From: an uncultured Actinomycetota bacterium
Lineage (GTDB): Bacteria; Auribacterota; Ancaeobacteria; Ancaeobacterales; CAZGMX01
DNA length: 30,818 bases
NCBI GenBank assembly: GCA_964583365.1
Contig: CAZOWS010000102.1
Coordinates: 1-30,818, forward strand
Direction: 5' to 3'
Part shown: positions 23,906 through 26,413 of the stretch, piece by piece
Position numbering within the stretch: the stretch's first letter is position 1
Layout: each line of letters starts with the position of its first letter
Position numbers and translations under genes: made by a program
The notes under the pieces: model-generated
What the model was told of the DNA's origin: nothing
Databases searched by the model: none
What the model saw: only the letters and a program-made list of their open reading frames with translations

Positions 23906-26413
23906 TTACCCCACACTCCCCTCTAAACTTACGCCCAATAGCTTTTGTGCCTCCACTGCGAACTCCATCGGCAAATGTCGGAACACCTCTTTGCAAAAGC
24001 CATTCACGATTAAATTCACCGCATCCTCCTGGGACAAACCACGCTGCCGGCAGTAAAAAAGCTGATCCTCTCCGATTTTCGACGTGGACGCCTCATGCTC
24101 CAGCCGCGCGGTGGAATTATTCACCTCCACGTACGGGAACGTATGCGCTCCACAGCGATCGCCGAGCAACAGCGAATCGCATTGCGAATAATTGCGCGCG
24201 CCAACCGCTGCTTTCAGAATCTTGACCAGCCCGCGATACGTGTTCTGCCCATGACCCGCAGAAATTCCCTTAGAGACAATCGTGCTTTTAGTATCTTTGC
24301 CGATATGAATCATCTTCGTGCCCGTGTCGGCCTGCTGATAATTGTTCGTGACGGCCACCGAGTAAAACTCCCCGGTCGAATTGTCCCCCAGCAAAATACA
24401 ACTGGGATATTTCCACGTGATCGCCGAGCCCGTCTCCACCTGTGTCCAGGAAATCTTGGAGTTCTTGCCCTGACATTTCCCGCGCTTGGTCACAAAATTG
24501 TAGATGCCGCCTTTGCCATCCTTGTCCCCCGGATACCAATTCTGCACCGTAGAATACTTGATCTCGGCATTGTCCAAAGCCACCAACTCCACGACAGCCG
24601 CGTGCAGTTGATTCTCGTCGCGCATTGGGGCTGTACAATTGTGCACCGCGAAACCTTTAACCAAATAGGAGTGCGGCTCAGCGGCAGTTTCGAAGTTGTA
24701 CACAAAACCCTGATAGGGCTGTCGCCTAATGTGATGCACCGGCACAAGAAAGTATCCGTCCCGCAGCTTTGCCTTTTTGCTGCGCGTGTTCTTGGCATAG
24801 CAAATCATGTATCTCTTCTTGTGCTTGATAACTTTTCCATCTTTCATCGTTTCATCGAAGGCCTCAGTGGTGTTGATGCAGGCGTAAATTCCCTGCCGAG
24901 AGAGAAGCTCTTGCAATTGAAACGCCAACTGCCGTGAGATAGTCGCTGCCCGTACACGTGTCAAGCGTCCTTCTTGACTCACGCTGCCGTCGCCTTTGTA
25001 ATACGTATCCAAAGCAAGCTTTTGGCGAGCAGGCGGAAGATCCATAACGGTTTTACTGAAACGTTTCTGCAACGCGTATTTGCCACCGTGCTCCACCATT
25101 TTCGCAGAGAGTTCACGGGAATAAACGACCATGTACATTCCGTGTGTCTTTCTGTCATGCGAACGCGAAGGTCGCTTACCCGTGACTTTTTCAATGAGCC
25201 CGCATACTTCCTCAATATTCTCTTTTTCATGATCGCCAAGAGAAATCTCCACGGCATCACAGCCGTTGAATTTCGTTGCACAGCCTTCAGCCACGTAATA
25301 CCCGAGAAGAGCGAGAAAATCATCGCTAAGGCTTGTATCATCCCGTTCTATCTTGTTGATAGGAAACACAATCAAATCACCTTCGGTAAGATCGCCAGCA
25401 GGAATATATGCGGGGGCAGCGTCTTTGAGACGTTTCGGGTCAACATCGGGCCAACGACCTTCCTTACGAAGTGAACTACGAACCTTCTCCCGCTGAATCG
25501 CCATCACAGGATGCTCAGTCGTTAGATGAAAACGATTGCCAGTACTTAGAGGCGTGATTTCTACAAGGTCCCCATGGTATGCGCGACGCATGATTTTTGC
25601 CACGTTTGCCTTCTGTCCATCTCCGTTCAACACTTCATCCTGCAACGAAATCTCGCGTATAGGCTTGACCACATCCCCGCAGCTAACTTCTTACCAAGCT
25701 GGTAAGCAACCTTCCAGATAACTCACGTAGGCGCCTTCCTCGGCGATGATCAGTGTGCGCTCGAATTGGCCTGTGTCGGCCGCATTGATGCGAAAGTACG
25801 TGGACAGCTCCATCGGGCAGCGCACGCCTTTGGGGATATAGCAAAATGAGCCATCGCTAAAAACCGCGGCATTCAGCGCGGCAAAAAAATTGTCTGTATG
25901 CGGCACGACGGATCCGAGCCATTTCCGCACGAGCTCCGGATGATGTTGCACGGCCTCGGAGAAAGAGCCGAAAATAATTCCCAATTCCCCTAGCTTGGCC
26001 TTGAACGTCGTGGCCACCGAGACGCTATCAAACACCGCGTCTACGGCAACGCCCGCCAACACTTTCTGTTCACTGAGCGGTATGCCCAATTTCGCGTAGG
26101 TTTCCAAAAGCTTGGGATCCACTTCGTCCATGCTTGCCAGCTTCTTTTTTGGCGCGGAGTAATACACCATGTCTTGATAATTGATTTTGGGATAATGCAC
26201 GTTGGCCCAGACAGGCTCCGTCATTGTGAGCCAGTGCCGGAAAGCTTTGAGGCGCCATTCCAGCATGAAAGACGGCTCATTTTTTTTGGCCGATATTGCG
26301 CGTACGACGTCTTCACTCAATCCGCGAGGAAGGCTATCCGCCTCGATATCCGTCACGAAGCCGTATTTGTACTGCTGACTTGTTAAATCCGAGATAGTTT
26401 CTTTTGAAGCCAT
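23906..26413 (-). CDS. sufB: Fe-S assembly protein SufB, intein-containing, interrupted by an in-frame TAA at 25693-25691
   Basis: Track ORFs 25691..26485 and 23906..25672 share one frame. N-extein 235 aa ending YVSYLEG, 357-codon intein, C-extein 243 aa starting [17 protein letters not shown]; exteins total 478 aa, normal for SufB. Confidence 0.9.
24638..25708 (-). mobile_element. SufB intein with LAGLIDADG homing endonuclease (Mycobacterium tuberculosis SufB/Pps1-intein type)
   Basis: Starts CLPA, block B TTEHP, endonuclease blocks LLGYYVAEG and [22 protein letters not shown], block F VYNFET, ends GFAVHN before Cys+1; inserted at EG/CTAP. Confidence 0.93.

Follow-up and report, generated by a model that had tools for sequence, protein, structure and literature searches.

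An in-frame TAA at an invariant codon of the SufB intein in a metagenome-assembled genome: a one-base lesion with no sign of a programmed mechanism

The suf operon and the SufB intein

The stretch of DNA analyzed here in its entirety (the window; 30,818 nucleotides) carries a suf operon on its minus strand, with the following features.

26436..26957, minus strand: Rrf2-type SUF regulator gene (sufR), upstream of sufB (TIGR02944, 6.3e-37)
23906..26413, minus strand: sufB with its terminal TAA; an intein and one in-frame TAA interrupt the gene (translation; NF008773)
25709..26413, minus strand: SufB N-extein, 235 codons, ending in YLEG (Pfam SufBD_N and the start of SUFBD_core)
24638..25708, minus strand: class-1 intein, 357 codons, with a LAGLIDADG homing-endonuclease domain, at the YLEG/CTAP site (PF14528 and boundaries)
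23909..24637, minus strand: SufB C-extein, 243 codons, starting with CTAP (SUFBD_core, 3.4e-69)
23156..23902, minus strand: sufC, intact (TIGR01978, 2.5e-108)
21876..23159, minus strand: sufD, intact (TIGR01981, 1.3e-83)
20635..22047, minus strand: sufS open reading frame (TIGR01979, 6.1e-184)
19850..20638, minus strand: SufU-like scaffold (NifU_N) fused to FeS_assembly_P (DUF59/SufT-like), 262 aa (domain matches)

The sufR, sufC, sufD, sufS and sufU genes are intact, in agreement with the original prediction that the suf genes other than sufB look intact. With respect to sufS, the match to its family begins only at residue 70, the first ~60 residues match nothing and the frame overlaps sufD by ~170 nt; the late start of the match together with this overlap indicates that translation probably begins at the Met close to residue 57 (MNVATEEPQ...). 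The SufU-like gene is the last of the operon and the only NifU_N gene of the genome, which contains one sufB and one sufD. SUF was the sole Fe-S assembly system found in the genome, and Fe-S enzymes, including a radical-SAM enzyme, are encoded both in the window and elsewhere in the genome. A second sufB, which the original prediction had proposed to look for, was found on none of the 372 contigs of this 87% complete genome. As there is one sufB, as SUF is the only such system found and as the sole NifU_N gene lies in this operon, a true sufB null should be lethal, unless a second sufB copy sits in the missing 13% of the genome.

When translated through the internal stop codon, SufB scored 900 bits against NF008773, the NCBIfam SufB equivalog, for which the cut-off is 717. 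The gene starts at the ATG at 26413, with a GAAGGAAG ribosome-binding motif upstream, and ends ...SLEGSVG-TAA with the terminator at 23908..23906. The intein runs from CLPAW... to ...AVHN and is followed by CTAP, so that it is inserted between the Gly and the Cys of the SufB YLEG/CTAP motif, the same site as in all 120 homologous SufB-intein proteins compared. Its endonuclease domain was recognized by PF14528 (LAGLIDADG_3) at 6.5e-15 and the translation contains the LAGLIDADG motifs LLGYYVAEG and YYKGDGS, while PF14890 (Intein_splicing) matched only below the cut-off of that family. The residues needed for splicing are present as C237, T299, H302, H592, N593 and C594 (read-through numbering) and fall in invariant alignment columns; Cys1, the block-B T..H, the terminal HN and Cys+1 are thus all kept in the window intein. 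Two open frames on the plus strand lie antisense to the SufB C-extein and intein (24095-24937, 280 aa, and 24974-25474, 166 aa). Considered as genes, they had no Pfam match and are probably due to chance.

The closest well-known relative is the SufB intein of M. tuberculosis, which we take to interrupt the same EG/CTAP motif. The window copy resembles it in Cys1, a block-B His near position 66/67, the terminal His-Asn, Cys+1 and the LAGLIDADG domain, and differs from it in having a TAA at codon 6 and in sitting in an uncultured lineage. The assignment to the SufB (Pps1) type is based on more than 100 environmental homologues rather than on direct alignment with the M. tuberculosis protein. In length the two are also alike, with 357 aa in the window and 359 aa in the M. 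tuberculosis SufB (Pps1, Rv1461) intein (PMC8891592).

With more than 100 intact homologues the intein shared 60-72% identity, the relatives being labelled as Steroidobacteraceae, Latescibacterota, Planctomycetia, Elusimicrobia and archaea, whereas the SufD encoded in the window is a singleton in the public protein collection, its next best match being 54% identical. Third-position GC content (GC3) was 0.507 in the intein, lower than in the exteins (0.63 and 0.67). In G001, a genome from the same family, sufB (L009, G001:C351) is free of the intein and YLEG and CTAP are contiguous. The intein-free sufB within the family, the GC3 gap and a cross-phylum likeness closer than that of the host SufD point to a recent horizontal acquisition of the intein by homing, as judged from sequence comparison.

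Two further intein loci were noted. On the metagenome locus L100 (Ga0136614_10000044) the intein N-terminal pattern occurs twice on opposite strands, at 3428-3468 (plus) and 135-175 (minus), which could represent two sufB-intein copies or an inverted duplication. On contig C352 of G000, at ~4480-6895 (L002:547-2964), a second, intact intein lies in a radical-SAM enzyme of the AmmeMemoRadiSam system. It begins at the third Cys of CDFHCAYC (C/FTGDTII...) and ends ...LAVSN/CQNWN, and its splicing would therefore restore the CxxxCxxC motif. An in-frame pair of open reading frames on C352, with a TAA at 4459, was considered as a similar case of an internal stop and rejected, as it consists of two adjacent genes and the intein is intact.

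The in-frame TAA and conservation of its codon

Across the start of the intein the minus strand of sufB reads TAT CTG GAA GGT / TGC TTA CCA GCT TGG TAA GAA GTT AGC TGC GGG GAT GTG, which translates as Y L E G / C L P A W * E V S C G D V. Two features of this stretch are of interest here.

25708..25706, minus strand: intein Cys1 codon (read from the sequence)
25691..25693, minus strand: in-frame TAA at intein codon 6, replacing an invariant Glu (translation and comparison with G020)

Downstream of the TAA, 588 codons remain open in the same frame, across the end of the intein to a normal SufB C-terminus. Translation thus confirmed the original prediction of a TAA six codons into the SufB intein with the frame continuing behind it, at the coordinates originally given. 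The TAA lies 16 nt from the intein junction, on the intein side. In the deposited protein sets (NCBI-derived), sufB is present only as two fragments of 240 and 588 aa, and both were found on this one contig alone. Cis-splicing requires that the intein and both exteins form one uninterrupted frame, which the TAA at codon 6 breaks, and the copy as assembled would therefore yield no precursor.

It had originally been proposed that two G-to-T changes, or a compensating pair of indels, were needed to produce the stop, starting from the CLPAGE with which the M. tuberculosis SufB intein begins. Neither proposal survived comparison with the intein family, in which Trp at position 5 is the majority residue (102 of 121 sequences, including that of the window) and position 6 is Glu in 120/120 homologous SufB-intein proteins. 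The intact 835-aa homologue of a same-phylum genome (G020) has TGG GAA GAA in place of the TGG TAA GAA of the window, with one base changed and no indel. Since Trp5 is the majority residue and Glu6 is invariant in the family, a single G-to-T change of GAA suffices, and the lesion amounts to one base, G-to-T in the coding strand and C-to-A at 25693 of the plus strand. With Glu restored, the N-terminus of the window intein, CLPAWEEVSCGD, is among the two commonest N-termini of its homologues.

Conservation at the DNA level was equally strict. Codon 6 was GAA in 53 and GAG in 52 of 105 public DNA matches from genomes and metagenomes. A degenerate pattern of the intein N-terminus with TAA, TAG, TGA or TGG at codon 6, scanned against genome_contigs and metagenome_contigs, found 0 loci in either set, as compared with 31 loci in genome_contigs and 73 in metagenome_contigs for the same pattern with GAR at this codon. 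The stop is therefore a singleton, absent from about 225 homologues (proteins and DNA loci together). As the intein TAA is a single event, a chance statistic is inapplicable to it.

The remainder of the gene was compared with 50 full-length homologues. Window SufB departed from columns conserved at 96% or more at only 7 of 836 positions, and all seven departures were conservative (N/D, M/L, A/S, S/A, I/L, K/R and H/E). As far as its sequence allows one to judge, the rest of sufB is without decay.

Readthrough, reassignment and a split intein

If the TAA is real, SufB could be obtained from a leaky stop, with near-cognate or suppressor decoding of UAA giving enough full-length precursor, which would then splice. 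The sole point in favor of such decoding, an indirect one, is that sufB is otherwise perfect and is essential. UAA is the least leaky of the bacterial stop codons. No tRNA with a UUA anticodon was present among the 29 tRNAs detected by Aragorn, a result that is weak alone as the MAG is incomplete. In this genome TAA is the commonest terminator of long open reading frames (513 cases) and also terminates sufB itself, and unless Glu were inserted, near-cognate decoding would put a different residue at an invariant position. The stop, moreover, is conserved in none of the homologues described above. With no suppressor tRNA found, with TAA acting as a normal terminator and with the stop not conserved, the readthrough option of the original prediction found no support, and we consider it very improbable. 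A related reading, in which the TAA is real and fixed in the lineage and SufB is still obtained through unusually high UAA readthrough or an undescribed rescue, is in our estimate slightly more improbable again. If it were true, the sole Fe-S scaffold would be expressed by way of a leaky stop within an intein.

Reassignment of TAA to an amino acid in this organism has nothing in its favor beyond the single codon. TAA ends 513 of 1318 open reading frames of at least 250 codons, no in-frame stops occur in 40 conserved domain matches and no cognate tRNA was found. The TAA that terminates sufB sits exactly where its homologues end (SLEGSVG), and since sufB itself terminates at TAA, reassignment is refuted; its residual probability is negligible.

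The most unusual of the original options was an extreme split intein, in which the SufB N-extein followed by the five residues CLPAW would trans-splice with a second protein reinitiated downstream of the stop. The first in-frame start beyond the TAA, and the only candidate for reinitiation, is the following.

25670..25672, minus strand: GTG at intein codon 13 (inspection of open reading frames)

This GTG lies 18 nt past the stop, and the boundary between residues 12 and 13 approximates the cut point of engineered S1 split inteins. In those proteins the N-intein comprises 10-12 residues, the cut falls between beta2 and beta3, and 4 of 14 constructs spliced (PMC3620165). The window intein resembles such constructs (Ssp DnaB S1 and others) in being broken near the intein N-terminus and in having a possible start at residue 13. 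The two halves of an engineered S1 intein, in contrast, hold every residue, whereas here residues 6-12 (EEVSCGD), including the invariant Glu6 and Gly11, would be in neither product, and the N-fragment would be 5 residues long as against the 10-12 of working S1 N-inteins (PMC3620165). When the read-through precursor was modelled with AlphaFold (mean pLDDT 79, and about 90 for residues 241-250), the part that would be lost included, in a confidently modelled region, beta-strand residues 7-9 and then the turn at Gly11.

Upstream of the GTG the sequence is gcggggat, with the run of G 2 nt from the start codon and no canonical Shine-Dalgarno spacing; the GGG GAT in front of the GTG are also simply the codons of Gly11 (invariant) and Asp12 (present in 106 of 121 sequences). 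No relative was split at codon 6, with 0 loci carrying a stop there and 104 carrying Glu. Given the 5-residue N-fragment and the loss of residues 6-12, a split intein with reinitiation at GTG 25672 is not credible as originally proposed, and we regard it as highly improbable.

Assembly error versus a recent null allele

Taken together, the evidence leaves a lesion of one base in an invariant codon and gives no indication of a programmed mechanism; any programmed role for the TAA has at best a very small chance of being correct. We infer, with somewhat better than even confidence, that the assembly consensus carries a wrong or unrepresentative base at the TAA, and this is the explanation we consider most likely. 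The lesion could stem from a read or library error, or from a minority base retained in a MAG of low coverage, short contigs and high fragmentation. Its position is close to the intein junction, a point at which alleles with and without the intein would be expected to branch in the assembly graph. If the base is indeed wrong, the gene of the living organism would encode Glu6 and the whole precursor would be made, from which the intein would splice out to leave SufB with its EG-CTAP motif restored.

For an error of this kind speaks that the lesion hits an invariant codon of an apparently essential and otherwise intact gene. G-to-T/C-to-A changes are the classic artefact of oxidative damage during library preparation. 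The MAG consists of 372 contigs with an N50 of 7.9 kb, and is 87% complete with 4% contamination. Broken frames were present in 4 of 71 other public assemblies of the sufB-intein gene, a figure that serves as the background frequency at which assemblies show apparent breaks. Individual loci within this material included L024, L035 and L085, with 1-3 frameshifts each, and L123, which looks like a truncated or chimeric contig. The window TAA occurs only once and affects an essential, otherwise conserved gene in a fragmented MAG, and in this it is like other apparent gene breaks in metagenome assemblies. It differs from those in the other sufB-intein assemblies, and this argues against an error, in being a substitution where the other broken public copies are frameshifts or chimeric contigs.

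Internal stops were absent from 33 ABC-ATPase and 7 class-I aaRS domain matches of the MAG, a sample of 40 domains that is too small to measure an error rate near 1e-5. As no stops were found inside these matches, a high error rate cannot be claimed for the MAG. Exact look-ups of SufC and of the 588-aa open reading frame in public collections returned no further assembly of the lineage, which has been sampled there once.

The principal alternative is that the sampled population contains the TAA as a genuine nonsense allele of very recent origin, with sufB dead in the cells that carry it. Such cells would be non-viable or transient, or a second sufB, such as an intein-free one, would rescue them from within the 13% of the genome that is unassembled or from co-resident copies of the genome. 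The deposited sequence does carry the TAA, the MAG is not visibly error-rich, and the lack of any other decay fits a very recent lesion. Intein-plus and intein-minus alleles both exist in the group, as the intein-free gene of G001 demonstrates, and with the MAG 87% complete a second functional sufB is possible in the part that is missing. Against a null allele, its loss of function should be lethal with SUF the only Fe-S system found and Fe-S enzymes encoded, and none of the 372 contigs holds a second sufB. A strongly deleterious minority allele would, moreover, rarely be fixed by an assembler. The stop also falls 242 codons into the first structural gene, where it would be expected to exert a polar effect on sufCDSU as well. 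On balance we hold a genuine null allele to be possible but rather unlikely, and prefer a wrong or unrepresentative base in the consensus. The original prediction had ranked an artefact before a recent null allele, followed by readthrough and then a split intein, and all the evidence that could be brought to bear on this order agrees with it.

These data call for caution in interpreting the locus, since an essential gene looks dead as assembled and risks being misread as a pseudogene, as recoding or as a split intein. Should the stop be real and fixed, an essential gene would be expressed through a stop codon, although the odds of this are low. Most likely, the feature is real as letters and ordinary as biology, and does not represent a new way of reading or splitting a gene.
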